Source of the DNA: an uncultured Thermodesulfobacteriota bacterium
Lineage (GTDB): Bacteria > Desulfobacterota > GWC2-55-46 > JADFVP01
Direction of reading: 5' to 3'
NCBI GenBank assembly: GCA_964474975.1
Contig: CAYYUX010000001.1
Coordinates: 465 to 64,464, forward strand
DNA: 64,000 nt
Position 1 is the first letter of the stretch. The number at the start of each line of letters is the position of its first letter. The notes under the pieces are model-generated. The model saw nothing but the letters and a program-made list of their open reading frames with translations, was not told where the DNA came from and ran no database searches. Below, one piece after another: positions 1-16,530 of the stretch. The translations under genes were made by a program, and so were the position numbers.

Positions 1-15
1 CGCGCAAAAAAGGCC

Positions 16-567
16 ATGAAGGCGCTGAGGCACACCCTGCCCCTGCAGATTCTTGTGACCATGGGCTGGTGCGATGCCAATAACATTACGCTCAAGGTGC
101 TTAAGGCCCTCTCAGGGCTGAAAGACATTCAGATTACCGTTGTCCTTGGCCCGGATTACGCCTTTACGAAGACAATGGAGTCCTTTCAAACATTAAAAAA
201 TATTACATTCCGCCATAAGGTTAAGGATATGGCCCCTCTTATGGCCTCATCGCATATCGCCTTCACGGCCCTTGGCACTACGGTCTACGAGCTTGCCTTT
301 ATGGGTGTGCCGCCGATTATCATATCCAATTACAGAGATGATGAGAAGGACCTGGCGGCGCTACGAAAACTCAATGCAGGGGTGTCTCTCGGTTTTTACG
401 GGGGCGTCTCCGATGAGCTGATACGAGGCGCGGCCACGAGGTTTATTGAGGACGCATGGTACTGGCGCGAGGTCTCGTCGAAGGCGTCGAGGCTTACAGA
501 TGGGAGGGGCGCATGGAGAATCGCCTCAATCATCGCGGAACTCTATGGACGGAGGGCACGCTCATGA
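16..567 (+). CDS. Probable C-terminal part of a PseG-like UDP-sugar hydrolase (glycosyltransferase family 28 C-terminal domain); 5' end outside window, the ATG at 16 is probably internal
   Basis: Translation (…IAFTALGTTVYELAFMGVPPIIIS…LAALRKLNAGVSLG…) resembles the nucleotide-sugar-binding C-terminal half of MurG/PseG-type enzymes. Its stop overlaps the next gene's start (ATGA at 564-567). Context is a flagellin glycosylation operon ending in maf. Confidence 0.45.
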   Translation: MKALRHTLPLQILVTMGWCDANNITLKVLKALSGLKDIQITVVLGPDYAFTKTMESFQTLKNITFRHKVKDMAPLMASSHIAFTALGTTVYELAFMGVPPIIISNYRDDEKDLAALRKLNAGVSLGFYGGVSDELIRGAATRFIEDAWYWREVSSKASRLTDGRGAWRIASIIAELYGRRARS

Positions 568-1514
568 GAGGCGGCGATAACACCGCGATGGCCGTAGAGA
601 GGCTTCACAATGGCCCGTCATTGGGAGCCCATAAGGGCTACAGGGTAGTGGATTGTCTGGAGTGCGGTTTTGCGCATATTTTACCACTGCCTCCGCCTGA
701 GGAGCTTGATAGGATCTACAGGGATGAGTACTTCACTCTGGAAAAGCCTGATTTTATCCGATACGCGCGCGAGGACAGAGAGTGGTGGAATGTTGTTTAT
801 GACGAACGCCTCGATGGATTTGAATCAATGCTTTCAGGCGGCAAGAAGAGATTATTGGACGTTGGATGCGGGCCGGGTTTTTTTCTTAAGAGGGCGGCAA
901 AGAGGGGTTGGCGATGCCTCGGCGTGGAACCATCTAAAGAGGCCTCAGCCCATGCGAAAGGCCTCGGTGTAAATGTTATCAACGGGTTTTTCAATGGCAG
1001 GACCATGGGGGAAGAGGGCCTTGCCTATGATGCCGTGCATATCTCCGAGGTCCTTGAACACGTAGCCGACCCGCTGGCCGTCCTTGAGGATGTATATGGA
1101 CTCCTTGACGACGGAGGTCTTGTATGCGCCGTCTCGCCAAATGACTTCAGCCCCGTACAGAAGGTGCTACGCAGAAGGCTCGGTCATAAGCCCTATTGGA
1201 TATCCGTGCCTCATCACATCAATTATTTTTCCTTTGAGAGCATGAAGGCCTTATTGATTAGGGCGGGTTTTTCCATAGCTCGCGTAAGGGCCACCTTTCC
1301 AATGGATTTTTTTCTCCTCATGGGTAAGGACTACGTAGGTGACGATGCCCTCGGCAGGGAGTGTCATAAAATGAGAACAAGGCTCGACATCATGCTGACC
1401 GACCCCGGGCTCAAGGGCTTTAAGGACGAGATGTACGCCCTTATGGCGTCTCATAATATAGGCAGGGAATTCGTGATTTATGGAGTCAAGGGGAGAGTCG
1501 GAATAAAAGGATAA
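564..1514 (+). CDS. Class I SAM-dependent methyltransferase with an N-terminal Cys-x-x-Cys/His segment
   Basis: Motif I LLDVGCGPGFF and post-I acidic residue, plus motif II/III (LAYDAVHISEVLEHVADP, LLDDGGLV). N-terminal 'YRVVDCLECGFAHILP' resembles the small zinc-binding module of sugar C/O-methyltransferases. The start at 564 overlaps the upstream stop by 4 nt; the ORF tool's longer start at 456 lies inside the upstream gene. Confidence 0.7.
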   Translation: MRGGDNTAMAVERLHNGPSLGAHKGYRVVDCLECGFAHILPLPPPEELDRIYRDEYFTLEKPDFIRYAREDREWWNVVYDERLDGFESMLSGGKKRLLDVGCGPGFFLKRAAKRGWRCLGVEPSKEASAHAKGLGVNVINGFFNGRTMGEEGLAYDAVHISEVLEHVADPLAVLEDVYGLLDDGGLVCAVSPNDFSPVQKVLRRRLGHKPYWISVPHHINYFSFESMKALLIRAGFSIARVRATFPMDFFLLMGKDYVGDDALGRECHKMRTRLDIMLTDPGLKGFKDEMYALMASHNIGREFVIYGVKGRVGIKG

Positions 1515-2791: not shown

Positions 2792-3883
2792 GTGCGGACA
2801 AGGGCGGCCGTGCTGGAAAAAAAGGACGCTCCACTGGTTATAAGGAAGATAGAGGTGGGCCTGCCGGGACCCGATGAGGTCCTTGTGAAGATGGATATGG
2901 CGGGGCTCTGCAGGAGCGACCTTAACGCCATTACAGGGCATACAAGATACAATATGCCCCTTGTCCTCGGTCACGAGGGTGCAGGCACGGTGGTGGATAC
3001 GGGCCGTAATGTCATTGGATTCAAAAGCGGAGACACCGTGGCCCTGAGCTGGGCCGCCTATTGCGGGAGATGCTATTTCTGCGAGCGCGGTGAGTCGCAT
3101 CTCTGTCATACCGTGGCGTGGCCGCGAGGCAGGGGTTTTCTCCCCGATGGGACTACGAGGTTTCGGGGCGGGAAGGCCGAGAAAATATATCACTTTAACG
3201 GCGTATCGTCTTTTAGCGAGTATACCGTTGTACACAAGACGAGTTGTGTGCCCACCCCGAAGGCCCTGCCTCTCTACGTTAGCGCGGCAACGGGGTGTTC
3301 TGTTGTAACGGCCATTGGAGCCGTATTCAGGACTGCCGGGCCATACCTTAAGAGCAACGCCACTGTTATGGTGGTTGGAGGCGGCAGTGTTGGGGCGGCC
3401 CTGTTGCAGGCCCTGAGGCTCAGGGGCGCGGGCAGGATTATCCTCATTGAAAAAGATGAAAAGAAGTGGAAGGCCCTGCCGGCGGATTACTATGCGCCGA
3501 GTATCGTATCTTTTGATATGGAGAGGCATACGTCAGGTATGGGCGTTGATATATGTTTTGACTGCGTGGCCTCAAAGGAGACTATAGAAAGGTCCATGGG
3601 GGCCGTTAGAAGGGGCGGAACGGTTGTAATGGTCGGCGCCCCTCATCCGAACTTGAAGATAGGGCTTAAGGCCGTTGATTTTCATCTTGAGAAGAGGCTC
3701 ATTGGTTCGCTTTACGGCTCATCAAATCCCCAAAGGGATATGCCCATGGTATTTGATTTTTACAAGAGGGGACTGCTTGACCTTAATGCCTCACGCGCGG
3801 AGACATACGGCCTTGGCGATATAAACCTTGCCGTTGAATCTCTTCGGGAGAAGGGCGGTAAATTCATCATAACATTTGATTGA
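2792..3883 (+). CDS. Zn-dependent alcohol dehydrogenase (MDR superfamily), GTG start
   Basis: Catalytic Zn ligands in CRSDL…GHEGAG, structural Zn Cys cluster CGRCYFCERGESHLC, and Rossmann motif VVGGGSVGAALLQA. Start abuts the previous stop (2789-2791 TAG, then GTG). Confidence 0.75.
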   Translation: MRTRAAVLEKKDAPLVIRKIEVGLPGPDEVLVKMDMAGLCRSDLNAITGHTRYNMPLVLGHEGAGTVVDTGRNVIGFKSGDTVALSWAAYCGRCYFCERGESHLCHTVAWPRGRGFLPDGTTRFRGGKAEKIYHFNGVSSFSEYTVVHKTSCVPTPKALPLYVSAATGCSVVTAIGAVFRTAGPYLKSNATVMVVGGGSVGAALLQALRLRGAGRIILIEKDEKKWKALPADYYAPSIVSFDMERHTSGMGVDICFDCVASKETIERSMGAVRRGGTVVMVGAPHPNLKIGLKAVDFHLEKRLIGSLYGSSNPQRDMPMVFDFYKRGLLDLNASRAETYGLGDINLAVESLREKGGKFIITFD

Positions 3884-3943
3884 AAGGCGGAAGCTCCGTC
3901 ATGAGGACGGTTGATGTTTTGTTTAAAAAAAAGGAGGACTCTT

Positions 3944-4636
3944 ATGAGGTTATTTCTCGATACAGCTGATATTAAAGAGATAAAAAAGGCAAAGTCGTGG
4001 GGGGTGTTAAGCGGTATAACGACAAATCCATCTATAATCGCGAGGCAGAAAAGAGATTTTCTCTCCCTTGCGAGAGAGATATGCGAGCTTGTTTATCCCA
4101 ATCCCGTGAGCCTTGAGGTCGTGGAGCGAGAGGCCGGTCCAATGGCGGATCAGGCCAGAAGGCTCGCCGAGATTTCGCGCAACGTCGTGGTTAAGCTTCC
4201 TGCCAATCCCGCCGGCATGGAGGCCTTGAACCTTATCCGCGGAGAGTCCATAAAGACGAACCTTACCCTTATCTTTTCTCCGACGCAGGCCCTGCTTGCC
4301 GCCATGGCCGGGGCTACTTTCATCAGCCCCTTTATAGGCAGGCTTGAGGACAGGGGCTATAACGGGCTCGGACTTATACGTGAGCTTATGGAGGCCTTTT
4401 CGCACCATGATACGGAGACGGAGGTCATCGCCGCGAGCATCCGTGACCCTCATCAGATAGTGGAGATAGCAAGGGCCGGTGTTCAGATAGCCACCGTGCC
4501 CTTTGTAGTGCTTGAGAAGATGCTCCTTAACAATATGACGGATATGGACCTTGAGAAGTTTTTAAAAGACTGGGAGGAGGTGCCGGGTCGTGAGCATGCC
4601 TTTAGAGAAGATATCAGAAAGGCCGCTGGAGCTTAG
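3944..4636 (+). CDS. Transaldolase / fructose-6-phosphate aldolase family (TalC/MipB-like small transaldolase)
   Basis: MRLFLDTADIKEI…SGITTNPSI…VVKLPANPAGMEAL…TLIFSPTQALLAAMAGATFISPFIGRLED are the hallmark blocks of the about 215-aa transaldolase/FSA family. Good RBS (AAGGAGG) upstream of the ATG at 3944. The tool's 3911 start is probably an artefactual extension. Confidence 0.7.
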   Translation: MRLFLDTADIKEIKKAKSWGVLSGITTNPSIIARQKRDFLSLAREICELVYPNPVSLEVVEREAGPMADQARRLAEISRNVVVKLPANPAGMEALNLIRGESIKTNLTLIFSPTQALLAAMAGATFISPFIGRLEDRGYNGLGLIRELMEAFSHHDTETEVIAASIRDPHQIVEIARAGVQIATVPFVVLEKMLLNNMTDMDLEKFLKDWEEVPGREHAFREDIRKAAGA

Positions 4637-5639
4637 GGCGGCCGTATTTAAGGGACCCGGGGAGCTTGGCATAAGGCGATGTAGCTTCGCGGGGATTAAA
4701 AAGAACGAGGTCCTTGTCTCTATAAAGGCATGCGGTATATGCGGGAGCGACCTTAATATTTTTCACAGGGATCCTCCTGTGCCCATGTACTGGGCGGGCC
4801 ATGAGATAAGCGGCGTCGTCGCGGAGCTTGGCCCCGGTGTAAGGGGTCTTAAGCGGGGTGCCCGCGTGTGCCTGTCTCCCCTTGTGCCATGCATGAGGTG
4901 CCGTCCCTGCAGGAGCGGCCGCGATAATCTCTGCGAGAACTCCACTTTTGTTAGTTTTAACCGGCCCGGCGGGTTTGCCGATATGGTGGCCCTGTCTGCC
5001 TCCAATGTCTTTGAGATACCTGAGGGAATGGGTTTTACGGAAGCCGTGCTCGTCGAGCCCTTTGCCGACGCCCTGCACGCCATATCCGTGGCAGGGAGGA
5101 TGGCAGGTAAAAGGGCGCTCGTAATAGGTTGCGGCACCCTGGGGCTGCTTACCGTCAAGGCCCTTTGTCTTGAGGGGGCTTCGTCTGTGAGCGTGCTTGG
5201 CAGATACCCTTACCAGAGAGAACACGCCCTGTCCATGGGGGCGGATAGGGCCATGGACCCGGAAGACGCCGCCTCGGGACTGCGTGACAAGGGACCCTTT
5301 GATGTGGTCTTTGAGACTGCGGGAGGCTTTGGGAGCGACTCCATTACATTGTCCATAGAGGCCCTTGCGGGCAGAGGCATAATGGTCCTATCAGGCGTGC
5401 ACTACAATACGCCGCGCATGAACCTCAAGGACCTTACAGAGAAGGAGATTCAGATAAGGGGCGCTCAGCGTTACAGAAAGAAAGACTTTAATATGGCCCT
5501 TGCCCATTTTGCCTCTGGAAAGGTAGAGGCGCGGGGGCTGATAACCCACAGAGTGAGCCTTGAAGACATTATGGAGGGCTTTGATATCGCCTTCCATAAA
5601 AAGCAGACAAAGGCCGTAAAGGTGGTGGTATGTCCGTGA
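4590..5639 (+). CDS. Zn-dependent alcohol/polyol dehydrogenase (threonine/sorbitol dehydrogenase-like MDR)
   Basis: CGICGSDLNIF…GHEISGVV catalytic Zn site, structural Zn CMRCRPCRSGRDNLC, and nucleotide fold LVIGCGTLGLL. 5' end overlaps the aldolase gene by about 45 nt; exact start is uncertain (ATG 4590 or 4596). Confidence 0.7.
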   Translation: MSMPLEKISERPLELRAAVFKGPGELGIRRCSFAGIKKNEVLVSIKACGICGSDLNIFHRDPPVPMYWAGHEISGVVAELGPGVRGLKRGARVCLSPLVPCMRCRPCRSGRDNLCENSTFVSFNRPGGFADMVALSASNVFEIPEGMGFTEAVLVEPFADALHAISVAGRMAGKRALVIGCGTLGLLTVKALCLEGASSVSVLGRYPYQREHALSMGADRAMDPEDAASGLRDKGPFDVVFETAGGFGSDSITLSIEALAGRGIMVLSGVHYNTPRMNLKDLTEKEIQIRGAQRYRKKDFNMALAHFASGKVEARGLITHRVSLEDIMEGFDIAFHKKQTKAVKVVVCP

Positions 5640-6880
5640 ATGTAGCAGGGAAAAAAATACTTGTAATATCAGGGGGCGTAGAGGCCCTGCCCATCATTGA
5701 GAAGGCAATTGATATGGGCCTTTATGTCCTTGTATCTGACGGCGATATGTCTGCCCCGGGCCTTGCCCTTGCCCATGAGGCAATTATCGCCAGCACATAC
5801 GACGCGGAAAAGACCCTGGAGCTTGCCCGTTCCACGGACCCCAACAGGCGTATAGCGGGCGTTATATCGGCGGCCGCCGATGTGCCCCGAACCGTTGCCC
5901 TCGTGGCCGATGCCCTGGGGCTCCCGGGGCCTTCACCCCGCTCGGCGCTCCTTGCAGGCAACAAGTTTCTTATGAAGATGGCCTTTAAGGATATGGGGCT
6001 GGCCGTGCCGTGGTTTGCCATGATAAACGGCCCTGACGATTTAAAGGCCCTTACACGCGGCTCGGCCAAGGCCTTTGTTGTAAAACCCGTTGACAGCCGG
6101 GGCGCGCGCGGTGTAATTCGGCTTACGAAGGATGTTGACTGCGGATGGGCCTTTTTTGAGGCAAAAAAGAACGCGCCATCAGGCGCTGTAATGGTCGAGG
6201 AATGGATAGACGGGATACAACTCAGCACAGAGTCCGTTGTGGCCGGGGGGACCGTGGCCACACCGGGATTATCTGAGAGAAATTACGAGTATATCGAGAG
6301 GTTCGCCCCATATGTCATAGAAAACGGCGGCGACCTTCCGGCCCGTCTTGAAGAGCAGACACTCAAGGCCCTCAACGAGCTGATACTCGGCGCGGCGCGT
6401 GCCTTTGGCATTGATGACTGGACCATAAAAGGCGATATCGTCTTGAGCGATAAAGGCCCCGTCATCATAGAGGCCGCGCCGAGGCTGAGCGGCGGTTATT
6501 TCTGCACTCACACCATACCCCTCTCATCGGGCGTCGATATTGTCGAGGCGGCCATACTGCTCGCGTTGGGCATAAAAGTATCTGTAGCGGATTACAACCC
6601 CAAATTCACCAAATTCATCTCGCAGAGGTTCTGGTTCCCCGAAGAAGGGCTCGTTAAAGAGGTATGCCGAAAATCGGGCCTTGAGTCCATGGCCGGGCTT
6701 GAGATGATGAGACTGCATGTGAGAGAAGGCGATACCATCTCTCCCATGGTCTCGCATCCGTCCCGGGCCGGGATGGTTATCACATCAGGGCGCTCAAGAG
6801 AGGAGGCCGTGGCCCGGGCAAGCGATGCCATCTCCGCTGTGAAAATAATAACTGAAAAACCCATGAGGATGGCGCGGTGA
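5630..6880 (+). CDS. ATP-grasp domain ligase (carboxylate-amine ligase type)
   Basis: N-terminal pre-ATP-grasp Rossmann-like region (KILVISGG…), central ATP-grasp fold (…AFVVKPVDSRGARGVIRL…MVEEWIDGIQLSTE…) and a C-terminal substrate domain. Start overlaps the upstream stop (ATG…TGA overlap at 5630-5639). Confidence 0.65.
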   Translation: MSVNVAGKKILVISGGVEALPIIEKAIDMGLYVLVSDGDMSAPGLALAHEAIIASTYDAEKTLELARSTDPNRRIAGVISAAADVPRTVALVADALGLPGPSPRSALLAGNKFLMKMAFKDMGLAVPWFAMINGPDDLKALTRGSAKAFVVKPVDSRGARGVIRLTKDVDCGWAFFEAKKNAPSGAVMVEEWIDGIQLSTESVVAGGTVATPGLSERNYEYIERFAPYVIENGGDLPARLEEQTLKALNELILGAARAFGIDDWTIKGDIVLSDKGPVIIEAAPRLSGGYFCTHTIPLSSGVDIVEAAILLALGIKVSVADYNPKFTKFISQRFWFPEEGLVKEVCRKSGLESMAGLEMMRLHVREGDTISPMVSHPSRAGMVITSGRSREEAVARASDAISAVKIITEKPMRMAR

Positions 6881-8478
6881 TGATAAAGAGAATACTCCTT
6901 CTTCAGCCTAATATGAAGATAGCCACCTCGGGCCAGCGCATAGTCTATCCGCCCATGGGTATCCTCTATCTTGCCTCCGTGCTTGAGGTCGAAGGTTACA
7001 CTGTAGCAATACTCGATTGTCAGACAGAGGGCCTCGATAGAGATGCGCCTCTGCGCGGCGGTTATGTGGATGTAGGCATCCCCATGGAAGAGATTGGCGC
7101 GAGGATTTTAAAGTTCAAACCGGACCTTGTCGGCATAAGCTGTAATTTTTCCGTAATGGTCGGCTCCATGAACGAGACGGCAAGACTCGTCAAGGAGCTT
7201 TTGCCGTCTGCCGTAGTGGTGGCGGGAGGCAATCACCCCACTTCCATGGCAGAGGAGGTTATGGAAAACCAGGCCATAGATTTTGTCCTGAAGGGTGAGG
7301 CCGAGCTATCATTTCCCGCCCTTCTTGCCGCCATGGAAGGGGATTGCGGGGGCTGTGAAGACTGCGATTGCGGCAAGGAGAGCAAAAAGAGTAGCGGCAG
7401 TAATGAGGATAATGATAAGGATGTCAGCGAGCCTCTTGCCTATAGTGCCGTGCCGGGCCTTGTCTGGAGAGATGGCGGCGTTGTGGTAAGTAACGCTCAG
7501 GGACCTTTTATTAAAGACCTCGATTCGTTGCCCTTTCCGGCGTGGCATCTTTTTCCATACGAAAAATATTCCAGCTTCTATAAACCCAAAAAAGTCACCT
7601 GGGGTCAGCCGCAGGCCATGCCCACGGTTCTTACAACGCGGGGATGCGCCGGCACATGCGTTTTCTGCTCAGTACACAGGACCATGGGAAGAAAATTCCG
7701 GGCGAGAAAGCTTGACGAGGTCTTTCGTGAGATAAGGTTTCTTGTAGATACATACAAGATAAGAAAACTCATGATAATAGACGACAACTTCACCCATGAC
7801 AGGGCGCGGGCAAAGGAGTTCTGCGATGAGTTCAAGAGGCAGGGCTTTAATATTGAGATACACTTCATGGTTCTTGCCCTCTGGTGCATGGACGAGGAGC
7901 TTATAGATAAACTCGTGGAGATAGGATGCGTCTCAATGGGTTTTGCCATAGAGTCCGGCGTGCAGGACGTGCTTACAAAGGTTGTTAAAAAACCCCTTAA
8001 GCTTACAAGGGCCATGGAGGTCCTTCGCTACGCAAAGAAGCAGGGCGTCTTTCTTACGGGGACCTTTGTCATAGGACTTCCCGGTGAGACTAAAAAAGAC
8101 ATCAGAAGGTCGCTCTACATGGCGAACTACAGCGGTCTCTTTGATAGCAGAGAGATTTATATCGCTACGCCCCTGCCCGGCACGGAGCTCTTCGGCAGGT
8201 GTGAGAGCGAGGGGCTATTCGCCGAGGGCTTCAGCTACGATAGGCTTGAGGTGGTAAAACCCAATATCACGACAGGGGATTTTACCGCAGGTTACATCGA
8301 GACAATAGTCGAAGCCGACAGGACTCATCACCTTATAAAGTCCAACCCTGCACATGCCCCGCATTATATAGCCGACGTTTGGCGGCGAAAGAGGCCCATT
8401 TTCATGAACGTCCTTTTTGAGACATCAGGCATGTTCATAAAATACGATCTACTTAAGATGAAGGAGAGCTATCCGTGA
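6877..8478 (+). CDS. B12 (cobalamin)-binding radical SAM enzyme
   Basis: N-terminal B12-binding domain pattern (ILLLQPN…PPMGILYLASVLEVEGYTVAILDC…GISCNFSV…VVVAGGNHPT), then a radical-SAM cluster motif CAGTCVFC (CxxxCxxC). Contains an unusual Cys/Asp-rich insert GDCGGCEDCDCGKESKKSSGSNEDNDKD. ATGA overlap with the upstream gene. Confidence 0.7.
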   Translation: MMIKRILLLQPNMKIATSGQRIVYPPMGILYLASVLEVEGYTVAILDCQTEGLDRDAPLRGGYVDVGIPMEEIGARILKFKPDLVGISCNFSVMVGSMNETARLVKELLPSAVVVAGGNHPTSMAEEVMENQAIDFVLKGEAELSFPALLAAMEGDCGGCEDCDCGKESKKSSGSNEDNDKDVSEPLAYSAVPGLVWRDGGVVVSNAQGPFIKDLDSLPFPAWHLFPYEKYSSFYKPKKVTWGQPQAMPTVLTTRGCAGTCVFCSVHRTMGRKFRARKLDEVFREIRFLVDTYKIRKLMIIDDNFTHDRARAKEFCDEFKRQGFNIEIHFMVLALWCMDEELIDKLVEIGCVSMGFAIESGVQDVLTKVVKKPLKLTRAMEVLRYAKKQGVFLTGTFVIGLPGETKKDIRRSLYMANYSGLFDSREIYIATPLPGTELFGRCESEGLFAEGFSYDRLEVVKPNITTGDFTAGYIETIVEADRTHHLIKSNPAHAPHYIADVWRRKRPIFMNVLFETSGMFIKYDLLKMKESYP

Positions 8479-8508: not shown

Positions 8509-10575
8509 ATGGCGGGGTTGTCTCTTTACGCTCTTTTTCACTGCAACCTTGCCTTCTCGCTTATAGGGAGAGAAGAGTTCAGGGCGGTTATCAAGAGGTG
8601 CTATCGTCCGTTGCTTGAGTTAGCCGGGGAGGGGCTTCCCATTGGTATAGAGATGAGCGCATGGACCCTTCGTCAGGTTCATCAACTTGAGCCTGATTTC
8701 ACAAGGAGGCTCAGCGATTTATGGGGGGCGAAGAGGCTGAGTTTCATCGGCTCGGGTTACGCCCAATCCATAATGCCGCTGATACCGGCAGAGGTGAACC
8801 GCTGGAACCTGAGGCTCGGCAATAAGTACTATGAGCAGATACTTGGCAGGGCCCCGAGCATTGCCCTTGTAAACGAGCAGACTTTTTCATCGGGGCTTGT
8901 AGGCCTTTATAAAGAGGCCGGCTACGAGACCATTATCATGGACTGGAATAATTCATGCCGTCATAAGAATTTTTCAAATCAAAGATTGTACTCTCCTCAG
9001 AGGGCCGCGGGAAGGTCGCCCGGTGAGGAGATAGGGCTCCTTTGGTCTCACTCCATCGCCTTTCAGAAGTTCAGTCGGTGCGTTCACGGCGAGTTTTCAC
9101 AAAAAGAATATATGGATTATCTTCTCTCCCATCATGAAGAGGGCGAGGAGAGGGCCTTTGTCGCCTACTCCAACGATGCCGAGGTCTTTGATTTTTGCCC
9201 CGGCAGAGGGGAGTCTCCGCGAGGCGACTTTGAGAGGGTAAGGGAGCTGTTAAAGGGGATAATGGACGAGAAGAGATTCGTCCTCTTAACACCTGAGGAA
9301 ATTTTAAATAAATTCAAGCCAGACCCATCTGCCGGACCCATGAGACTTGAGTCCGTTGAGACCCCCGTGGTCTCCAAGAAGCAGGAGAGGTATAACCCCG
9401 TCAGGTGGTCTGTAACGGGAAGGGACAGCGCCCATATAAACGCGCGGTGTCATACTTTGTATAAAAGGCTTGAGGCAATCTTCAGAGATGGAGGCGTAAA
9501 AGAAAAAGATATATTACGTGAAAAACTCTGCGAGTTCTGGGGCTCTGATTTCAGGACAAATACCTGCGACGACAAGCTCCGGTACTTTAACGAATCCATG
9601 GGGTGGCTGAGTCTTGAGACGGAACGCCTCCTGAGAGAGGCAGGGCTTGATGTGACCGAAGCGCTCCGCCCTTCCGAAGTATTCAGCGTTACAAAAGAGA
9701 GGGCTTCCGCGGGCATGGTCTTATGCGGCGCGGGTCTTTGCAGAGGGCCGTGGCCGGGGCAGTCTGTCAGGGGCTTTAACGCACTTGAGGTGGACGATGA
9801 TAAAAGGCGGGTGACTATCCGCGCACAAGAAGTGGAGCTGACCCTATTAAAAGACAGGGGGCTGGCCCTTTCTTCGGCGTCCTTTCCGGGGATTTCGGAT
9901 AAAGCTCTACTCGGCACCCTCGGCCACGGGTATTTTGATTCCATTGAACTCGGCGCGGATTTTTTTTCCGGCCACCTTATACATACGAGCCGGGACGGGG
10001 TAAAGACTACGGATCTTTGCCCCGCGCCTCACACTATCAGGGAAGATAGCGGCGGGCTGAGTATCTCCTCGGACATCGAGACACCCATAGGCCTCCTTGA
10101 AAAGACTTATCATATTCCGCGCCGCGGGGCGGAATTCTCCCTTACTTACAAGATAAAGGCCCCGGCCCTTCAGGCCTCAAGCCTCCGTCTCGGCATATTT
10201 ACCTTCATGCCCGAGGCATTTGATGTAGATGAGCTTTGGTTTGAAACGGTAAACGGCGGAATGGGGCCTGAGAGGTTTTATCTGAAGGGGCACAGGCTCT
10301 CTCACGACGAGCCCGTGAGCCCGGCCATCTCGGCATCGGGATGCCTCGGAGCCACAGAGGGATGGGTGGCCTTTGGCGATACAGAGAAAAGTCTTATCAT
10401 CAGCTCGGAGAGGCGTTTTGTACACACTGTACCCATGATAAATTACAGGGAATCCGGTGACAAGTTTTTCCTTCGCCTCTATCATTCCGCGGGAGAGCTT
10501 GATGATACCTCGTACTGGCTGTGGCGCGGAAGCAATGAAGTAACATTTATCATAAGGGCCAAGGGTCCGGCGTGA
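8509..10575 (+). CDS. Large (688 aa) protein with an N-terminal glycoside-hydrolase-family-57-like domain; catalytic role uncertain
   Basis: N-terminus 'LYALFHCNLAFSLIGREEFRAVIKRCYRPLLELAGE…IIMDWNN' parallels the GH57 'hNHQPxxNF…FEEAYEKCYxPxLExL…VIVDDYHF' blocks. The His-Gln-Pro signature is replaced by His-Cys-Asn. The remaining about 450 aa are unassigned. Fold similarity was judged by eye only. Confidence 0.4.
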   Translation: MAGLSLYALFHCNLAFSLIGREEFRAVIKRCYRPLLELAGEGLPIGIEMSAWTLRQVHQLEPDFTRRLSDLWGAKRLSFIGSGYAQSIMPLIPAEVNRWNLRLGNKYYEQILGRAPSIALVNEQTFSSGLVGLYKEAGYETIIMDWNNSCRHKNFSNQRLYSPQRAAGRSPGEEIGLLWSHSIAFQKFSRCVHGEFSQKEYMDYLLSHHEEGEERAFVAYSNDAEVFDFCPGRGESPRGDFERVRELLKGIMDEKRFVLLTPEEILNKFKPDPSAGPMRLESVETPVVSKKQERYNPVRWSVTGRDSAHINARCHTLYKRLEAIFRDGGVKEKDILREKLCEFWGSDFRTNTCDDKLRYFNESMGWLSLETERLLREAGLDVTEALRPSEVFSVTKERASAGMVLCGAGLCRGPWPGQSVRGFNALEVDDDKRRVTIRAQEVELTLLKDRGLALSSASFPGISDKALLGTLGHGYFDSIELGADFFSGHLIHTSRDGVKTTDLCPAPHTIREDSGGLSISSDIETPIGLLEKTYHIPRRGAEFSLTYKIKAPALQASSLRLGIFTFMPEAFDVDELWFETVNGGMGPERFYLKGHRLSHDEPVSPAISASGCLGATEGWVAFGDTEKSLIISSERRFVHTVPMINYRESGDKFFLRLYHSAGELDDTSYWLWRGSNEVTFIIRAKGPA

Positions 10576-10599: not shown

Positions 10600-12516
10600 A
10601 TGAGTATATTCGAGAAAAACTACGATGTAATCGCGCAAAAAGACAGTATCCTCGCCGATAGGCTCCGTGCCTTTAGCGGCGAGAGGGCCTCTGTCGAGCG
10701 GGCCGCCAATAAAGAGTTTGTACTGCGCTTCAAGGGCCGTCTCTTTAATAGCGCTTACGGGCCATGGAAGGAGGCATCCCTGCAGGCAGAGGAGATAATG
10801 AACAAAAAAGCGGACTGTGTGGCCCTCTTCGGCCTTGGTTGCGGCTACCTGCTTCGCACCCTTTTGAAGTTGGAGACAAAAAAGATATTTATTTTCGAGC
10901 CTTCCATGGAGATACTTACAGGCGTGCTGGAAAAAATAGACCTTAGCTCTGAGCTGAAGGGGCAGAATGTTTTCCTTGCCAATTATATAGGGCCTTTTGT
11001 CTCATGGATTCAGCGCTTTACCGAGGGCTTCGATAATATCATAGGCTACCATACCATGCCTTACAGATTGACCTTTCCCCATGAGCTAAGGGATTTCATG
11101 GTTAAGATAGAGAACGCCCATACCTCGCAGAAGGTCGGCATAAAGACGGAGATAGATTCAAGGGTGGACTGGCTGAAAAATTATTTTTCCAATCTAGAGT
11201 CATTCTTTACTTATCCCTCAGTAGACGTCCTTACGGAGAGGTTAAAGGGAATTCCCATGATCATCGTAGGCGCGGGGCCGTCTCTCAGTAAAAACGCCGC
11301 CCTCCTCGCGGAAATAAAAGACAAGGCCTTTATAGTATCGGCCATTACGGCCTATAAGAGCCTCTTGAAGTTAGGCGTTGTCCCCCATGCCGTGATAGCC
11401 GGGGAAAAGGTAGACCTTGACGAGTATTTTGACGGCGGCGAGCCCGATAGAGAGATTCGTCTCATCTTATCAGAGGTCTCTCACCCGGCAATGTTCCGTA
11501 GAGAGGCCAGCGGTAAATTTATCTTTTACAGCCCCTATATAGCCCTCAGCCTCGAGCAGGCAAGCCTCTGGGGAAGCTCCTCCTTTGTATCAATAGGAGG
11601 GTCTGTAACTACGGCCATTTTTGACATGGGCGTCAAGTTCGGCTGTGACCCCATTGTTTTTATCGGACAGGACCTTGCCTTTGAGAATGGACATAGTCAC
11701 GCGTCGGGAGGTGTTTATGACGGGCAGAGGGTCGTTATTGATAAAGAAAGGGGGGTTGTTGAGGTAAGAGAACACTATATTTCCGGCCATAAGCGCACTA
11801 TGCGCCACAAGCTTCAGTGGCTTAAGGATATTGAGGGCAAACCTGTTGCGAGTAAATATGACTGGGTTACCTTTCACCAGTGGTTTGAGCGTTATATGAT
11901 TCTTCTGAAAGAGGAATACCCCGATATACGTGTCGTTAACGCCACTGAAGGCGGCGCCTTTATAAAGGGCATGGAGCATAAGCCCCTTAAAGAGGTTATC
12001 TCAAAATATATCCTTGATCCCGAGCCCGTGGAGGATATTCTTGCTTCTGCGGCGGCCATGCGTCCCGAGGTGGATACGGCAGGTCTTGTAGAGGCCTTTA
12101 AGAGACTGGAGCTGAATGTAGCCCTTGTCTCAAAACTTTCATCGCAGATTGTAGCAGAGGCGGAAAAGATGCGGACAGCCTTTCAGATGAAAGGCCTTCG
12201 CACAGAACTTGGCGATAACCTTGGGAAGATAAGAAAGAAGGAGAAAAAACTTTTTAATGCCGCCCGCAAGGTAGCTTTTCTATGGGAGGCCCTTGTGGAG
12301 TACACCTACGACCTTAAGAGCTACCTTAAAGAGGCAGTTGACCGCTCCACGGAAGATCAGTTCAGTAAAGACATCGAGCGTACGATACGCACATACACGG
12401 AGGTGAGAAAGAAATGCGATCTCTTCGCCCCCATGGTGCGTGAGGGCCTTTCGTATGTAAGGCTTCTTCATGAGAGGTCAGCTCAGGACCGGCCCGTAGC
12501 CGTTAATCATAGATAA
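10600..12516 (+). CDS. maf: Motility accessory factor (Maf family, DUF115/MptE-like) - flagellin nonulosonic-acid glycosyltransferase
   Basis: Characteristic Maf N-terminus MSIFEKNYDVIAQKDSILADRLRAF. Central MptE-like domain with the IVGAGPSL motif. About 640 aa in length, located immediately upstream of the flagellin locus. Confidence 0.75.
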   Translation: MSIFEKNYDVIAQKDSILADRLRAFSGERASVERAANKEFVLRFKGRLFNSAYGPWKEASLQAEEIMNKKADCVALFGLGCGYLLRTLLKLETKKIFIFEPSMEILTGVLEKIDLSSELKGQNVFLANYIGPFVSWIQRFTEGFDNIIGYHTMPYRLTFPHELRDFMVKIENAHTSQKVGIKTEIDSRVDWLKNYFSNLESFFTYPSVDVLTERLKGIPMIIVGAGPSLSKNAALLAEIKDKAFIVSAITAYKSLLKLGVVPHAVIAGEKVDLDEYFDGGEPDREIRLILSEVSHPAMFRREASGKFIFYSPYIALSLEQASLWGSSSFVSIGGSVTTAIFDMGVKFGCDPIVFIGQDLAFENGHSHASGGVYDGQRVVIDKERGVVEVREHYISGHKRTMRHKLQWLKDIEGKPVASKYDWVTFHQWFERYMILLKEEYPDIRVVNATEGGAFIKGMEHKPLKEVISKYILDPEPVEDILASAAAMRPEVDTAGLVEAFKRLELNVALVSKLSSQIVAEAEKMRTAFQMKGLRTELGDNLGKIRKKEKKLFNAARKVAFLWEALVEYTYDLKSYLKEAVDRSTEDQFSKDIERTIRTYTEVRKKCDLFAPMVREGLSYVRLLHERSAQDRPVAVNHR

Positions 12517-12691
12517 ATGGAAGCGGAGTCCATCAAGCCCTCCCCGCTGTCCATGAATGAGTTTAAAATTACAATGAAGGAAATCCTTGAAAATCCCGGA
12601 AAACTAAAAATCATGTTCTTATTTTTTTGTCTTCGCTAATTAACGTGGGCATTATTATGTGCTTCCATGGCAGATAAAGAAGGAGCCTGTT

Positions 12692-13297
12692 ATGACGGAT
12701 ATATACCTTGACGATACGAGGCTGGAGATAGGTGGCGCTGACGCCGCATCTACTATCGGCGATATTATTGTGGCTGTGGAAGAGGACCTTAAACCCTTCC
12801 GGCGTTTTATTCAGGAGCTATGGCTCGATGGCTTTAATGCGGGTATCGGATGGAAGGATACCGTGGCCGTCAATGAGCCTTTTGAGCTATATGGAGAGCT
12901 AAAGCTCTTTAGCGGCGATGTAGACCCCATAGTCCTGAAAGGGATTTATACGGTGAGTGAGTATATTGATTTTATTTGTACTCTCATTAACGATACCTCT
13001 TCCGCCCTCAGACGCGGTGCTGGAGAAGTAGACAACCTCCTTGGAGCGATTATCGAGAGTACCGGAGAGGTTATCAGAACCATGGATTCACTCTACAGGT
13101 GCGGTCTATCCTATGAGATAGATATATTCAGAGAAAATCCCATATCCTGTTACGAGGCAATTTTAAGGAATATGTCGGAGCTGAAAGACGCCCGTTTGTC
13201 ACGGGACAATATCCTGCTTGCCGATATACTGCAGTATGAGCTCGGTCCGCTACTGATACAGATGGAGGAAAAGGTCTTTTACCGAAAAGATATGTGA
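12692..13297 (+). CDS. Hypothetical acidic protein (about 200 aa) between maf and fliC
   Basis: Intact ORF with a reasonable RBS (AAGGAG at about 12678) before the ATG at 12692; alternative upstream ATG at 12659. No motif recognised. Sits directly upstream of the fliC sigma-28 promoter. Confidence 0.4.
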   Translation: MTDIYLDDTRLEIGGADAASTIGDIIVAVEEDLKPFRRFIQELWLDGFNAGIGWKDTVAVNEPFELYGELKLFSGDVDPIVLKGIYTVSEYIDFICTLINDTSSALRRGAGEVDNLLGAIIESTGEVIRTMDSLYRCGLSYEIDIFRENPISCYEAILRNMSELKDARLSRDNILLADILQYELGPLLIQMEEKVFYRKDM

Positions 13298-13453: not shown

Positions 13454-14296
13454 ATGGCTTTAATTATCAACACCAACATTGCGTCACTACTCGCGCAACA
13501 GAACATCAGTTCATCGAACGCCCAGTTGAAGATAAGCGTTCAGAGGCTATCATCTGGTCACAGGGTCAACAGCTCTGCTGATGACGCCGCGGGGCTTGCC
13601 AGGGCGGATCAGCTTCGTAGCCAGTCCAGGATGATTCAGGCCGCACAGCGGAACGTCAATGACGGCGTCAGCGCCATGGAAATCAGTGACAAGGCCGCTG
13701 AGCAGGTTACGAACATTATCACAAGGATGGGCGAGCTTGCCGCGAGCGCCTCACAGGGTACTCTCGATAGCAATACAAGAACCTTTTTCAGTGATGAGTA
13801 TGACAAACTGATCAACGAAATAGACAGGATAGCGGGTACAACAGAGTTTGGAGGTTTTAAGCTCCTTAACGGCTCCATAACCTCGCTGACCATGTTTATC
13901 GGGTTCAAAAATTCATCGGATAACCAGTTAAGCGTCAGTCTTGTAGCCCTTACAAGCGCCGGCGCTACAGGTAATGTGGGCCTCAGCCTCTCTGCCGGTG
14001 CTCTCTCAGGTGTAACGGGCGCGTTGAACGCCCTTGACGCCGTAAGCGTAGCGCTCAACAGAGTCAATAGCGCAAGGGCCGTATACGGTGCTACAACGAA
14101 CAGGCTTAACGTTGCGCTTAATAACCTTCAGGTTACATTCACTAACTTCCAGGCCGCTGAATCAAGGGTAAGAGACGCTGACTTTGCCTCTGAGACGGCT
14201 ACCTTTACAAAGAACCAGATAATGGTTCAGGCTGGTATTTCTGTTCTCGCGCAGGCTAATACACTGCCGAGAAATGCGCTACAGCTCTTGAGATAG
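13454..14296 (+). CDS. fliC: Flagellin (short, 280 aa)
   Basis: Canonical N-terminus MALIINTNIASLLAQQN…LSSGHRVNSSADDAAGLA and C-terminus …QAGISVLAQANTLPRNALQLLR. Strong RBS AAGGAGGG upstream. Confidence 0.9.
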   Translation: MALIINTNIASLLAQQNISSSNAQLKISVQRLSSGHRVNSSADDAAGLARADQLRSQSRMIQAAQRNVNDGVSAMEISDKAAEQVTNIITRMGELAASASQGTLDSNTRTFFSDEYDKLINEIDRIAGTTEFGGFKLLNGSITSLTMFIGFKNSSDNQLSVSLVALTSAGATGNVGLSLSAGALSGVTGALNALDAVSVALNRVNSARAVYGATTNRLNVALNNLQVTFTNFQAAESRVRDADFASETATFTKNQIMVQAGISVLAQANTLPRNALQLLR

Positions 14297-14320
14297 TCTA
14301 AGGGCATTCTGACCTCTCTA

Positions 14321-14365
14321 CGGGTGAGGGGGCCGCCATGGCTTCCTCACCACCCGCCTTTTATG
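14321..14365 (+). terminator. Possible intrinsic terminator after fliC
   Basis: GGGTGAGG…CCTCACC inverted repeat (about 7-bp stem, 15-nt loop) followed by CCGCCTTTTATG. Weak U-tract. Confidence 0.4.
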
Positions 14366-14440
14366 ATTATGCTGAGCTGTAAACTGTTGGGCCGAGAGGG
14401 GTAAGAGGCGCTTGCCAATTTTTTTTTAATGGAGGACATC

Positions 14441-15766
14441 ATGACAATAACCGCAACTGGCGTAATATCGGGAATTGATTCCAAGGCGATTATTCAGCAA
14501 CTTGTTAGCGTGAGGAGCCTCCCTATAGATCAGCTTGTATCTGACAGGAAAAAACTTGAGAACGTAAACTCCACATACACAACACTCGCCTCCCGTGTCG
14601 AGGACCTTAAGACCGCCGCTGACGCCCTTCGCACTACCTCCGGCTTTGCCAGTTTTACTGCTTCAAGCAGTGATACAACTATAGTTGACGCCACGGCCAG
14701 TACAACGGCCACGGCCAATTCATCTGTTATTGTCGTAAATGCCCTTGCAAAATCACATAAGATAGCCGCCGATGGCGTGGCCGCGGCAACTACAGTCGTA
14801 GCCTCTGCTCCGGGTTCTTTTAATTTTACCGTGGGTTCGGGGACCATGCAGAGCGTGGCCGTTGACGCTACAACAACGGTCACCGGGCTAAGCGATGCCA
14901 TTAACGCCCTTAACGCCGGGGTCTCATCTTCCGTGGTAAACGACGGCACATCCTACCGGCTGGTTCTTACGGCAAAATCAACTGGAACGACTAACGCCGT
15001 AACCATTAACCAAAATGATACTACCCTTGCTTTTAACACTACCCTGCAGGCCGCCCAGGACGCCTCTTTTACCGTAGACGGTCTCGCCGTAACACGATCT
15101 TCCAACACTGTAAGCGATGTGCTGACAGGTGTTACTCTAAACCTTAAGAGCGCCAACGCCTCAGCGCCAGTTACTGTAACCTCTACACGCGATGTGGGGG
15201 AGATAGAAAAAAAGGTAGTGGCTCTTGTAGACAGATACAACGCGGTCATGAGTTATATCAAGAGCAACAACCGTTATAATGTTGATACAAAGTCCGGCGG
15301 CCCCCTATTCGGCGACGCCGTCGCGAGGAGTATATCCGATGAGGTCAGCCGTATTATGACATCTCCCGTAAGCGGCCTACCCTCTACCATGAACAGGCTC
15401 CTGCAGGTAGGAGTTACAAGAGACAGCACAGGAGTCATGTCCCTTGACAGCACAAAGCTCAAGGATGCACTTAATACAAATTACAACGATGTAGTGAATC
15501 TATTCATAGAGGGTACATCGACATCAGGTTTCGGTAAAAGCATATATGACCTTGCCAGCTCCTTAGTCGACAGCGTTGACGGCAGGATTACCAAAAAACA
15601 GGAGGGGCTAACCAGCAACATAGCCTCTATTACAACGCATATAACCGATAAGGAACAGGAAATAGCCGCTTATGAGGCCTCTCTGAGAGTGCGTTTTACT
15701 TTTCTTGAGAGTACTCTCTCCGGGATTAAGGCTCAGGGTAATTTCCTGCATGCCGGCGGCTTTTAA
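14441..15766 (+). CDS. fliD: Flagellar filament cap protein FliD (hook-associated protein 2)
   Basis: N-terminus MTITATGVISGIDSKAIIQQLVSVRSLPIDQL, Thr/Ser/Ala-rich central region and conserved C-terminal block (…LESTLSGIKAQGNFL…). GGAGG RBS 5 nt upstream of the ATG at 14441 (alternative ATG at 14429). Confidence 0.85.
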   Translation: MTITATGVISGIDSKAIIQQLVSVRSLPIDQLVSDRKKLENVNSTYTTLASRVEDLKTAADALRTTSGFASFTASSSDTTIVDATASTTATANSSVIVVNALAKSHKIAADGVAAATTVVASAPGSFNFTVGSGTMQSVAVDATTTVTGLSDAINALNAGVSSSVVNDGTSYRLVLTAKSTGTTNAVTINQNDTTLAFNTTLQAAQDASFTVDGLAVTRSSNTVSDVLTGVTLNLKSANASAPVTVTSTRDVGEIEKKVVALVDRYNAVMSYIKSNNRYNVDTKSGGPLFGDAVARSISDEVSRIMTSPVSGLPSTMNRLLQVGVTRDSTGVMSLDSTKLKDALNTNYNDVVNLFIEGTSTSGFGKSIYDLASSLVDSVDGRITKKQEGLTSNIASITTHITDKEQEIAAYEASLRVRFTFLESTLSGIKAQGNFLHAGGF

Positions 15767-15776
15767 AGGGGGATAA

Positions 15777-16190
15777 ATGAAGGGTATCAAGGCATATCAG
15801 AAGGTTCATGTAATGACATCTGACGGAGTGAGGCTTGTGATAATGCTCTACGAAGGCGTCGTGAAGTTCAACAGGATGGCCGTTCTGGCAATAGAAGATA
15901 ATGATATTGAGAATAGGAGCCGTTATATCAACAGGTCCGTTGCCATTATAAGCGAACTTTGCAGCGCCCTGGATATGGAGAGGGGTAAGGAGATAGCACT
16001 TAATCTCAGGGATCTATATGGCTATTGCCTTGCAAGACTCTCTGAGGCCAATAACAGTAACTCGGCAGAAATTATTGAAGAAGTTACACGTATTTTTATT
16101 GAGGTGAAGGAGGGCTGGGACGCTCTGGCAATATCAGGTGTACAGACAGGTAAACCTCGGCTTGAGGTGGGGGCGCGATATGGGGGCTGA
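15777..16190 (+). CDS. fliS: Flagellin-specific export chaperone FliS
   Basis: About 137 aa; …GIKAYQKV…VRLVIMLYEGVVKFNRMA…YINRSVAIISEL… typical FliS four-helix pattern. Directly follows fliD. Confidence 0.85.
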   Translation: MKGIKAYQKVHVMTSDGVRLVIMLYEGVVKFNRMAVLAIEDNDIENRSRYINRSVAIISELCSALDMERGKEIALNLRDLYGYCLARLSEANNSNSAEIIEEVTRIFIEVKEGWDALAISGVQTGKPRLEVGARYGG

Positions 16191-16530
16191 GAAGACGGCC
16201 CGTATGGGCTTGCTGGAGAGATTGCTTGATATCGCGAGGGCCCAGAAAAAGCTTCTCTCAGAGAACCGTCTTGGCGAGCTTGCAAAGACCATGGCCGAGC
16301 GTGATGATGTTGTATCTCGTCTGAAGTCCGCGGGAGCCCCGGCAGGAAAGGAAGAAGGTAATATTCTTAAAAAAATACTGGATTACGACAGTAATCTCAG
16401 AGTCTCTCTTGAAGTTGAGCTTGAGGAAATCCGTCGTGAACTTGAGAAATTATCAGACTGTAATGTGGTTAATAAGGCCTACCTATCCACTCAGGTAAAG
16501 ACGGTAGAGAGGAGTTTACGAAATGGATAA
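16180..16530 (+). CDS. Small coiled-coil protein, FlgN/FliT-like flagellar export chaperone candidate
   Basis: About 116 aa, helical heptad-rich (LLERLLDIARAQKKLLSENRLGELAKTMAERDDVVSRL…), matching the FlgN pattern (LxxLLxxExxxLxxL…K…L…D…L). Position after fliS is typical for fliT/flgN. Start is ambiguous (GTG 16138 or ATG 16180). Confidence 0.4.
   Translation: MGAEKTARMGLLERLLDIARAQKKLLSENRLGELAKTMAERDDVVSRLKSAGAPAGKEEGNILKKILDYDSNLRVSLEVELEEIRRELEKLSDCNVVNKAYLSTQVKTVERSLRNG

Follow-up and report, generated by a model that had tools for sequence, protein, structure and literature searches.

The gene at nucleotides 8509 to 10575 of a 64,000-nucleotide stretch of DNA from an uncultured Thermodesulfobacteriota bacterium (GenBank assembly GCA_964474975.1, contig CAYYUX010000001.1; the whole stretch is referred to below as the window) very probably encodes a cytoplasmic and catalytically competent enzyme of glycoside hydrolase family 57 (GH57), which belongs to the "alpha-galactosidase-related" subgroup, is built of three domains, carries the catalytic residues E123 and D223, and is not an alpha-glucan enzyme. 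With the same high confidence, the GH57-like family of this protein is regarded as a fixed part of gene cassettes for decorated nonulosonates of the pseudaminic acid type, in which it is translationally coupled to an ATP-grasp ligase, and the product of the cassette in the window would go to the glycosyltransferase Maf for the O-glycosylation of flagellin. The constant partners of the family are the ATP-grasp ligase and the genes for pseudaminic-acid-type sugars, not Maf.

Nonulosonic acids on flagella, capsules and S-layers bear diverse N-acyl and other decorations, which affect motility, immune recognition and the specificity of phages and antibodies. To our knowledge, the enzymes responsible are known for a minority of these decorations only, and GH57 is known only for alpha-glucan and alpha-galactoside enzymes. 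The present analysis ties a large, widespread and uncharacterised branch of GH57, together with its ATP-grasp partner, to the chemistry of nonulosonate decoration, and a biosynthetic role, if it is true, would extend GH57. Members of the branch are found in tractable organisms, namely Shewanella oneidensis MR-1 (whose flagellin bears a 538-Da glycan), Geobacter metallireducens and Clostridium kluyveri.

The open reading frame (ORF) of the gene is real. A G-rich, Shine-Dalgarno-like stretch precedes its ATG, it starts 30 nucleotides (nt) past the stop of a gene for a B12-binding radical SAM enzyme, and it is followed after 24 nt by the start of maf, with no terminator-like site in either of the two gaps that flank it; this bears out the adjacency to the co-directional maf gene that had been described in an initial annotation of the window. 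The same annotation had placed the N-terminal part of the protein in GH57, and that assignment holds by Pfam, by sequence, by profile and by fold. Residues 21-271 are covered by the Pfam model PF03065 (Glyco_hydro_57) at E = 5.2e-17, with 62.5 bits where the cut-off is 21.2, and the sole relative in the PDB at the level of sequence is the 4-alpha-glucanotransferase of Thermococcus litoralis (TLGT; 1K1W), which is recovered with E = 1.8e-6 from the single sequence and with E = 2.8e-11 from the family profile. A scan of the protein against NCBIfam matched no model.

The AlphaFold2 model, which was built on 41 homologues, is confident (mean predicted local distance difference test score, pLDDT, 87.7; predicted template modelling score, pTM, 0.88), and its disorder is confined to residues 388-421. 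Searched at full length with Foldseek, it retrieves TLGT with E = 1.5e-22 and GH38 alpha-mannosidases with E of about 1e-21 and a template modelling (TM) score of 0.65 on the query; the barrel alone retrieves CE4-like deacetylases at a lower score of 18-20, and the C-terminal domain retrieves galactose mutarotase-like proteins at a score of about 18.5. The succession of elements by which GH57 is recognized, a (beta/alpha)7 barrel and then a helical bundle, is present in the predicted model, as the initial annotation had anticipated for the barrel. The C-terminal part of the protein, approximately 450 residues which had been left without an assignment, takes on a confident predicted fold, in which a helical bundle and a mutarotase-like beta-sandwich of the kind typical of TLGT and GH38 can be recognized. 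The protein is predicted to be cytoplasmic, because its N-terminus forms strand beta-1 of the barrel and it has no signal peptide.

The residues that correspond to the nucleophile Glu and the acid/base Asp of GH57 were located by pairwise, profile-to-PDB and profile-profile alignments (the last with a TLGT-type profile of 38 sequences, at a probability of 98.4%), and their conservation was counted in an alignment of 118 close homologues and in a set of 146 cluster representatives with only 29-41% identity to the query, for which the counts are out of 147. Both predicted catalytic residues survive in the protein: E123 is kept in 118/118 close and 147/147 distant homologues, and D223 is kept in 116 of the 118 and in all 147. 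E225 is invariant in both sets; Q86, K290, W300, S346, D347 and R349 are further invariant residues, K291, R299, D484 and D502 are nearly so, and invariance in the family extends to the dyad and some 20 further positions. By its sequence the protein is apparently active. The reading of it as a degenerate or pseudo-enzyme was rejected on this pattern of invariance, and the earlier suggestion of a non-hydrolytic partner is contradicted by the conservation of the dyad across both sets of homologues.

The degenerated catalytic signature that had been proposed for the protein concerned the region I motif, in which the invariant His-Gln-Pro was said to be replaced by His-Cys-Asn. The canonical H-x-H-Q-P of conserved sequence region 1 (CSR-1) is indeed absent and H-C-N-L-A stands in its place, but the register is probably one in which HCNLA corresponds to HxHQP, so that the first His is kept while the second His becomes Asn, Gln becomes Leu and Pro becomes Ala. 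This register was taken from the published table of CSRs, because the profile-profile alignment with the 38 TLGT-type sequences spans residues 24-277 only and starts past region I. The string FHCNLAFS, which had been placed at nt 8539-8562, comprises residues 10-17 and lies one codon away, at nt 8536-8559. The 120 best homologues share, with hardly an exception, the N-terminal sequence F-H-[C/L]-N-L-[A/S]-[F/Y]-S; H11 and N13 occur in 114/114 close homologues that have the N-terminus (position 12 being C in 64 and L in 42) and in 137/137 distant representatives that have it. The motif H-x-N-L-A is thus a derived and conserved signature of the family and no sign of decay, and HQP is not the catalytic pair of GH57. 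A GH38-like metal site, formed by H11, N13 and E123 with a C-terminal His, was also considered and is not supported, since the candidates H473 (115/147) and H489 (104/147) are not invariant.

If the protein is compared with the TLGT-type enzymes (1K1W/1K1X), the arrangement of barrel, helical region and beta-sandwich is found to be common to both and the Glu and Asp are aligned, but the identity is only about 13-20%, the window protein has no match to Pfam DUF1925 or DUF1926, TLGT has H-x-H-Q-P where the window protein has H-x-N-L-A, and the context is nonulosonate synthesis in the one case and alpha-glucan metabolism in the other. Several residues of the TLGT-type active site are replaced: the invariant Glu of "YEP" is Q86, the Asp before the acid/base is N222, D97 is V96, one invariant His is E48, and the Trp residues flanking the nucleophile are different. 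From GH38 the protein is set apart by the lack of a PF01074 match and by the nucleophile, which is Glu in the window protein and Asp in GH38; a zinc site of the GH38 type is likewise not supported in the family. The basic residues K290, K291, R299 and R349 would fit a substrate that bears a phosphate or a carboxylate. Taken together, the loss of active-site acids and of the stacking Trp and the presence of invariant Lys and Arg support an anionic substrate, and we infer that the substrate of the enzyme is a pathway sugar or nucleotide sugar of anionic character rather than flagellin or an alpha-glucan.

The family has been delineated before. In an analysis of 1602 GH57 sequences, Martinovicova & Janecek (2018; PMC6037648) singled out 15 bacterial "alpha-galactosidase-related enzymes" as a new group, typically of about 640 residues (747 in C. 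kluyveri), with a TLGT-like three-domain model and a complete catalytic machinery whose Glu and Asp lie at about residues 125 and 223-225. The members named there are from Desulfurella acetivorans, Clostridium kluyveri, Shewanella halifaxensis, S. oneidensis MR-1 (Q8EC76), S. baltica, Geobacter metallireducens (Q39YI3) and Desulfovibrio hydrothermalis, and the fingerprints given for the group are HCNLA/HLNLA for CSR-1, (Y/L)(I/V)NEQ(A/C) for CSR-3, G(S/N)D(A/L)E(V/I)F(D/N)(F/Y)(R/K) for CSR-4 and (L/M/F)W(A/G/S)SD(L/F/Y)RT(H/K) for CSR-5 (PMC6037648). The window protein matches these with HCNLA, LVNEQT, SNDAEVFDFC and FWGSDFRTN (compare, for example, LVNEQA, GNDAEIFDFR and LWSSDFRTH in the published table), and its homologues P0096, P0100 and P0102 carry the CSR-4 string of G. 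metallireducens, GNDIEIFDFR, exactly. Judged by these fingerprints, the GH57-like family is the group that was defined in silico in 2018, and it is not newly recognised. The window protein and its ten closest relatives depart from the published group at CSR-2, where they carry Ser or Thr instead of Glu, a change specific to this lineage; CSR-2 of the window protein (residues 75-80, nt 8731-8748) reads K-R-L-S-F-I and is without the conserved Glu of G-x-C-E-[LIF]-[IV].

The 2018 work covered 15 sequences without a function or a genomic context, whereas 1.84 billion cluster representatives, when searched with a profile, now yield approximately 683 at E <= 1e-30 (clusters at 50% identity), with a defined gene neighbourhood. 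Relatives are encoded in 348 GTDB species genomes among those scanned. The homologues fall into two length classes, of about 640-690 and about 750-780 residues, and the longer forms differ by a longer linker only.

The neighbourhood was defined from 80 loci of at least 10 phyla (designated L followed by a number), in which 1227 ORFs were called and clustered and the cluster representatives were annotated. A co-directional upstream ATP-grasp ligase, homologous to the product of nt 5630-6880 of the window, is present in 68 of the 73 loci that have enough upstream DNA; it is adjacent to the GH57-like gene in 34, separated from it by one gene in 27 and placed further upstream in 7, and where the two genes are adjacent the gap is often -4 to +3 nt; the overlaps of 4 nt hint at a complex of the two enzymes. 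Two ATP-grasp ligase genes are found in the cassettes of L029, L035, L047, L050 and L061, and such paired genes may stand for two separate acylations.

Genes of the nonulosonate pathway are present in 42 of the 47 loci that span at least 18 kb, with a PseG-like gene in 36, a short NeuB-like gene in 22, a cytidylyltransferase in 15, a PseB-like gene in 12 and PseC in 11. PseC scores 560 bits, which is above the NCBIfam equivalog cut-off, but the PseG-like proteins of the clusters score 91-116 bits against a cut-off of 153.6, and the one NeuB-like protein that was scanned (285 residues, from the region 5291-8057 of L086) reaches 174-178 bits where the cut-offs are 340-400, so that both fall below the equivalog thresholds. 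In none of the loci whose neighbours were annotated was a PseH-like gene seen. By its gene content, the pathway is a variant form of the canonical route to pseudaminic acid.

A variable slot lies upstream of the ATP-grasp gene. In the window (nt 2792-5639) it is occupied by a transaldolase or fructose-6-phosphate aldolase (FSA) and two Zn-dependent alcohol dehydrogenases, while in loci such as L037, L044, L060, L071 and L086, with which it was compared, it can hold a split transketolase and a short-chain dehydrogenase/reductase (SDR), or an enzyme that resembles acetolactate synthase and depends on thiamine pyrophosphate (TPP), again with an SDR. That three different C-C bond-forming enzymes, each with a reductase, take this place in different lineages suggests interchangeable routes to different side-chain acids. 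Optional genes of the cassettes encode IolB/KduI-like proteins, UxaC, methyltransferases and B12-radical SAM enzymes.

The association with Maf is narrower. In 36 of 69 loci Maf is encoded directly 3' of the GH57-like gene; all 36 come from metagenome-assembled genomes of "Deltaproteobacteria" or Thermodesulfobacteriota, from one clade whose GH57-like proteins are at least 44% identical to the query, and no Maf was found by tblastn within 10 kb in 30 of the 69. Co-occurrence with maf, which had been proposed as a check, does not hold for the family as a whole. One of the 30, the Geobacter locus L056, has a divergent Maf gene with tetratricopeptide repeats (TPR) directly after the GH57-like gene, which is recognized by Pfam only, so that about 29 are truly without Maf; a more sensitive search with a hidden Markov model (HMM) built from the Mafs of the loci added L056 and no other. 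The lineages outside the clade include Acidobacteriota, Patescibacteria/Saccharibacteria, Omnitrophota, Vampirovibrionales, Planctomycetia, Chloroflexia, Actinomycetota, Burkholderiales, Nitrospiraceae and a Thermoplasmata archaeon, and their loci often hold glycosyltransferases, an asparagine-synthase-like gene and a flippase-like gene. Several of the loci without Maf belong to lineages such as Patescibacteria, Saccharibacteria, Acidobacteriota and the Thermoplasmata archaeon, and have glycosyltransferases and flippase-like genes downstream in its stead. Among further loci sampled from distant representatives, a flagellar locus of alphaproteobacterial type has the order TPR protein, NeuB, GH57-like protein, two methyltransferases and a DXS-like transketolase, with the ATP-grasp and SDR genes on the opposite strand. 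Two polysaccharide-type loci contain, respectively, methyltransferases, transketolase, SDR, ATP-grasp, NeuB-like, GT61 and EpsG genes, and methyltransferases, RtcB, a MurD-like protein and GT2 genes.

A cultured example with the same organisation is plasmid pDCAR1 of Solidesulfovibrio carbinolicus, the sole informative match in the plasmid collection, in which the genes annotated by the Prokaryotic Genome Annotation Pipeline (PGAP) follow one another in the order NeuB-family, pseF, PseG-like, methyltransferase, FabG, transketolase N and C, methyltransferase, ATP-grasp, "glycoside hydrolase", pseB and pseC. The S. carbinolicus protein has the accession WP_129356103.1. In one homologue (P0127, 957 residues; L083 5609-8482 and L084 2005-4878) the GH57-like protein is fused to an AAC(3)-like N-acetyltransferase, and the fusion has PseB and PseC as neighbours, an AMP-binding enzyme and an SDR before it and a DUF4910/DUF2172 (M28 peptidase-like) gene after it; no fusion to an ATP-grasp domain was found among the 150 best representatives. 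The Saccharibacteria locus L074 has PseB, PseC, NeuB and a cytidylyltransferase but neither a PseG-like gene nor PseH. A full-text search for literature that links GH57 to nonulosonate or flagellin glycosylation, or to ATP-grasp enzymes, found no such paper in the library searched, where the papers that mention both GH57 and NeuB concern unrelated topics, and the genomic context appears to be the new part of what is reported here. The proposal that the gene is a new component of flagellin glycosylation can accordingly be kept in part: in this lineage the gene belongs to a flagellin-glycosylation locus and its pathway supplies that process, but the family is not specific to Maf and was known from 2018.

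The following account of the reaction is the one that we prefer, and it is put forward tentatively, as possible rather than probable. The ATP-grasp enzyme would N-acylate the amino sugar intermediate made by PseC, taking the place of PseH, with an acid provided by the variable upstream enzymes. The GH57-like enzyme would then act by a retaining double displacement, in which E123 attacks the anomeric carbon and D223 serves as acid and then as base, and would cleave the axial sugar-nucleotide bond of the anionic N-acylated intermediate, so that the free sugar could pass to the NeuB-like synthase. This last step would be of the PseG/LegG type, carried out by an unrelated fold. The sugar-nucleotide bond is proposed as the target because such bonds would be the only ones available to a glycosidase in a cytoplasmic nucleotide-sugar pathway. 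Support for a hydrolase step comes from the N-acetyltransferase fusion, which mirrors the order of PseH and then PseG, and from L074, where the family member occurs with PseB, PseC, NeuB and a cytidylyltransferase in the absence of PseG-like and PseH genes. The loss of active-site acids and of the stacking Trp and the invariant Lys and Arg residues also count in favour of this step. The likeness to PseG, LegG and NeuC would be a functional analogy only, consisting of the release of a 6-deoxy-hexosamine from its nucleotide after N-acylation and of a similar position in Pse-type clusters; the window protein is not a member of that group, because it has a GH57 barrel and not a GT-B fold. If this account is true, the protein would be the first GH57 enzyme to act biosynthetically on a nucleotide sugar.

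Several observations weigh against it. We know of no GH57 or GH38 enzyme that acts on nucleotide sugars. A PseG-like protein, which would already cover the release of UDP, is co-encoded in 46 of the 80 loci, although these proteins score below the PseG equivalog cut-off, and the argument from the charge of the substrate is indirect. At the CSR-2 position, the window protein and its closest relatives have lost the conserved Glu: Ser or Thr is confined to the 11 closest relatives (P0001-P0011), three more carry Asp, and all others keep Glu. In addition, the published group has an "until-now-undefined enzyme specificity" (PMC6037648).

The co-encoded PseG-like gene poses no such conflict if the enzyme is instead an N-deacylase, that is, a barrel re-tooled as an amidase which removes the N-acetyl group that stems from UDP-GlcNAc and would become the N5 acetyl, and whose product is re-acylated by the ATP-grasp ligase or the fused acyltransferase, a pair that could be likened to the "deacetylate then re-acylate" pairs NodB/NodA or LpxC/LpxD. 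We rate this reading, which takes up the nonulosonate deacetylase suggested in the initial annotation, as unlikely, although it is the most probable of those that compete with cleavage of the sugar-nucleotide bond. The constant coupling of the family to amide-forming enzymes (the ATP-grasp ligase in 68/73 loci, and the AAC(3)-like fusion with its nearby AMP-binding enzyme) speaks for it, as do the two ATP-grasp genes of some loci and the lack of any other candidate deacetylase in the loci examined. The fold, however, says glycosidase, and the conserved residues are exactly the GH57 glycosidase dyad; the window protein has no CE4 match in Pfam, no NodB-type motif and no Asp-His-His metal motif, and the extra His ligands that could be proposed, H473 and H489, vary among the distant homologues. 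Moreover, in a pathway without PseH the product of PseC already has a free amine. If the N-deacylase were real, it would be the first non-glycosidase chemistry in GH57 and would make with the ligase, which installs a pathway-specific acid, a two-enzyme module for the remodelling of N-acyl groups, and the deacetylase that is still lacking to explain how pseudaminic and legionaminic acids come to differ in their N5/N7 acyl groups would have been identified. A further reading is that of a retaining transglycosylase or glycosidase by which a glycosyl unit is added to the nonulosonate or its acyl side chain, moved on it or trimmed from it, possibly with a phosphorylated donor made by the ATP-grasp enzyme; the dyad is intact, the closest solved relative by sequence is itself a 4-alpha-glucanotransferase, cassettes hold sugar-acid enzymes such as UxaC, an IolB/KduI-like protein and a UDP-sugar dehydrogenase as well as transketolase and transaldolase, which form C-C bonds, and the flagellin glycan of S. 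oneidensis has a large extra moiety of 236 Da (PMC3765264). Against this stand the lack of an obvious cytoplasmic donor glycoside, the resemblance of the ATP-grasp protein to an L-amino-acid ligase (LAL_C2) and not to a kinase, and the replacement of the aromatic platform residues of glucan-binding GH57 enzymes, and we regard the idea, in either form, as rather improbable.

A non-hydrolytic partner of Maf with a GH57 fold, for example a substrate-binding or specificity subunit for flagellin glycosylation, would fit the position of the gene directly 5' of maf, which it has both in the window and in 36 related loci, and accessory Maf factors such as GlfM do exist (10.1101/2023.12.03.569772). This reading is largely refuted by the distribution of the gene and is very improbable: the loci in which tblastn found no Maf (among which that of Geobacter has its divergent one by Pfam) include many that are of the polysaccharide type with no flagellar genes nearby, the alphaproteobacterial-type locus has a TPR protein and not Maf as the neighbour, the slot of GlfM 3' of maf is taken by a different gene, and the catalytic dyad does not vary. 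That the protein is an ordinary GH57 enzyme for alpha-glucans or alpha-galactosides, active on glycogen or maltodextrin and located here by chance, is hardly credible at all; the Pfam match and the names given to relatives in public records, "alpha amylase domain protein" or "glycoside hydrolase family 57", would be in keeping with it, but the synteny with nonulosonate genes extends across at least 10 phyla, region I and the stacking Trp of the glucan enzymes are replaced, and of the 1227 ORFs called in the loci none belongs to a cluster with a glycogen-gene annotation. The probability that is left over falls to some function other than these.

A close studied counterpart of the cassette is sfmABCDE of S. 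oneidensis, which encodes a NeuB-like protein, a TPP enzyme, an SDR, a methyltransferase and an ATP-grasp protein and is required for the modification of flagellin; the ATP-grasp mutant shows a partial loss of mass, and the organism has an atypical 538-Da glycan and no clear orthologues of PseH, PseG, PseI and PseF (PMC3765264). Many loci, L060, L071 and L045 among them, have the same composition 5' of the GH57-like gene. A family member, Q8EC76, is encoded by S. oneidensis as well, as listed in the table of PMC6037648, and the sfm study did not include a GH57-like gene (PMC3765264). In the window, the transaldolase and the two Zn-dependent alcohol dehydrogenases replace the TPP enzyme and the SDR, and a B12-radical SAM enzyme is added. 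The features of the window are collected in Table 1.

Table 1. Coordinates of the GH57-like gene, its motifs and domains, and the neighbouring genes in the window (nt unless residues are stated; SAM in methyltransferases, S-adenosylmethionine)
Feature	Position	Strand	Basis
GH57-like enzyme gene	8509..10575	+	688 residues, ATG start
Region I motif H11-C-N13-L-A (family H-x-N-L-A vs GH57 H-x-H-Q-P)	8539..8553	+	homologue alignments; published CSR-1 HCNLA/HLNLA
E123 codon, predicted catalytic nucleophile (motif V-N-E-Q)	8875..8877	+	aligned to 1K1W E123 and to the Glu that is invariant in the TLGT-type profile
D223 codon, predicted acid/base (motif N-D-A-E-V-F)	9175..9177	+	aligned to 1K1W D214
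Predicted domains of the GH57-like protein	residues: (beta/alpha)7 barrel 1-~280; helical region ~297-385; disordered linker 388-421; galactose-mutarotase-like beta-sandwich ~427-685		predicted model
PseG-like gene, 3' part (GT-B family, related to the UDP-sugar hydrolase PseG)	1..567	+	tblastn 84% identity at 1-561, queries from related loci
SAM-dependent methyltransferase 1	564..1514	+	Pfam Methyltransf_23 E = 1e-22; start per L081 gene call
SAM-dependent methyltransferase 2, 421 residues	1526..2791	+	Pfam Methyltransf_23 E = 1e-16
Zn-dependent alcohol dehydrogenase 1	2792..3883	+	Pfam ADH_N, ADH_zinc_N
Transaldolase / fructose-6-phosphate aldolase family	3944..4636	+	Pfam TAL_FSA E = 3e-49; start per L081 gene call
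Zn-dependent alcohol dehydrogenase 2	4590..5639	+	Pfam ADH_N, ADH_zinc_N
ATP-grasp carboxylate-amine ligase (L-amino-acid-ligase-like)	5630..6880	+	Pfam LAL_C2 E = 1.7e-14, ATP-grasp_3
B12-binding radical SAM enzyme (methyltransferase-like)	6880..8478	+	Pfam B12-binding, Radical_SAM
Maf-type flagellin nonulosonate glycosyltransferase, no TPR domain	10600..12516	+	Pfam MptE-like E = 1.1e-32, Maf_flag10_N; NCBIfam PseD domain E = 1e-37, below cut-off
Conserved 201-residue protein between maf and flagellin (possible GlfM-like factor)	12692..13297 (ORF list 12659-13297)	+	homologues in 35 loci
Flagellin 13454-14296; FliD 14429-15766; FliS 15777-16190	13454..16190	+	NCBIfam matches

The PseG-like gene that is cut by the left edge of the window is complete in the 181-kb metagenome contig that is the source of the window (L081 1064-2059), where its product scores 114.9 bits compared to the cut-off of 153.6 for the PseG model TIGR03590, and it is preceded there by genes for a class-III aminotransferase and a Gfo/Idh/MocA oxidoreductase. 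The radical SAM enzyme that sits between the ATP-grasp and GH57-like genes has its best NCBIfam match in the Sden_1168-family "P-methyltransferase" model, but its 237 bits lie far under the 575 required. The 201-residue protein matches no family in Pfam or NCBIfam scans, and its homologues are typically encoded between Maf and flagellin. GlfM, a four-helix specificity factor for Maf-2 in Shewanella and other bacteria, is encoded in the same slot (preprint 10.1101/2023.12.03.569772), and a single-sequence model of the 201-residue protein, which is poor (pLDDT 42.8), has four helices in residues 88-200 and an extra N-terminal part. Downstream of fliS, nt 16180-20938 of the window encode FliT, a PilZ-domain protein, MotB and MotA on the opposite strand, and a sigma-54-dependent response regulator, and the glycosylation cassette is therefore embedded in a flagellar regulon.

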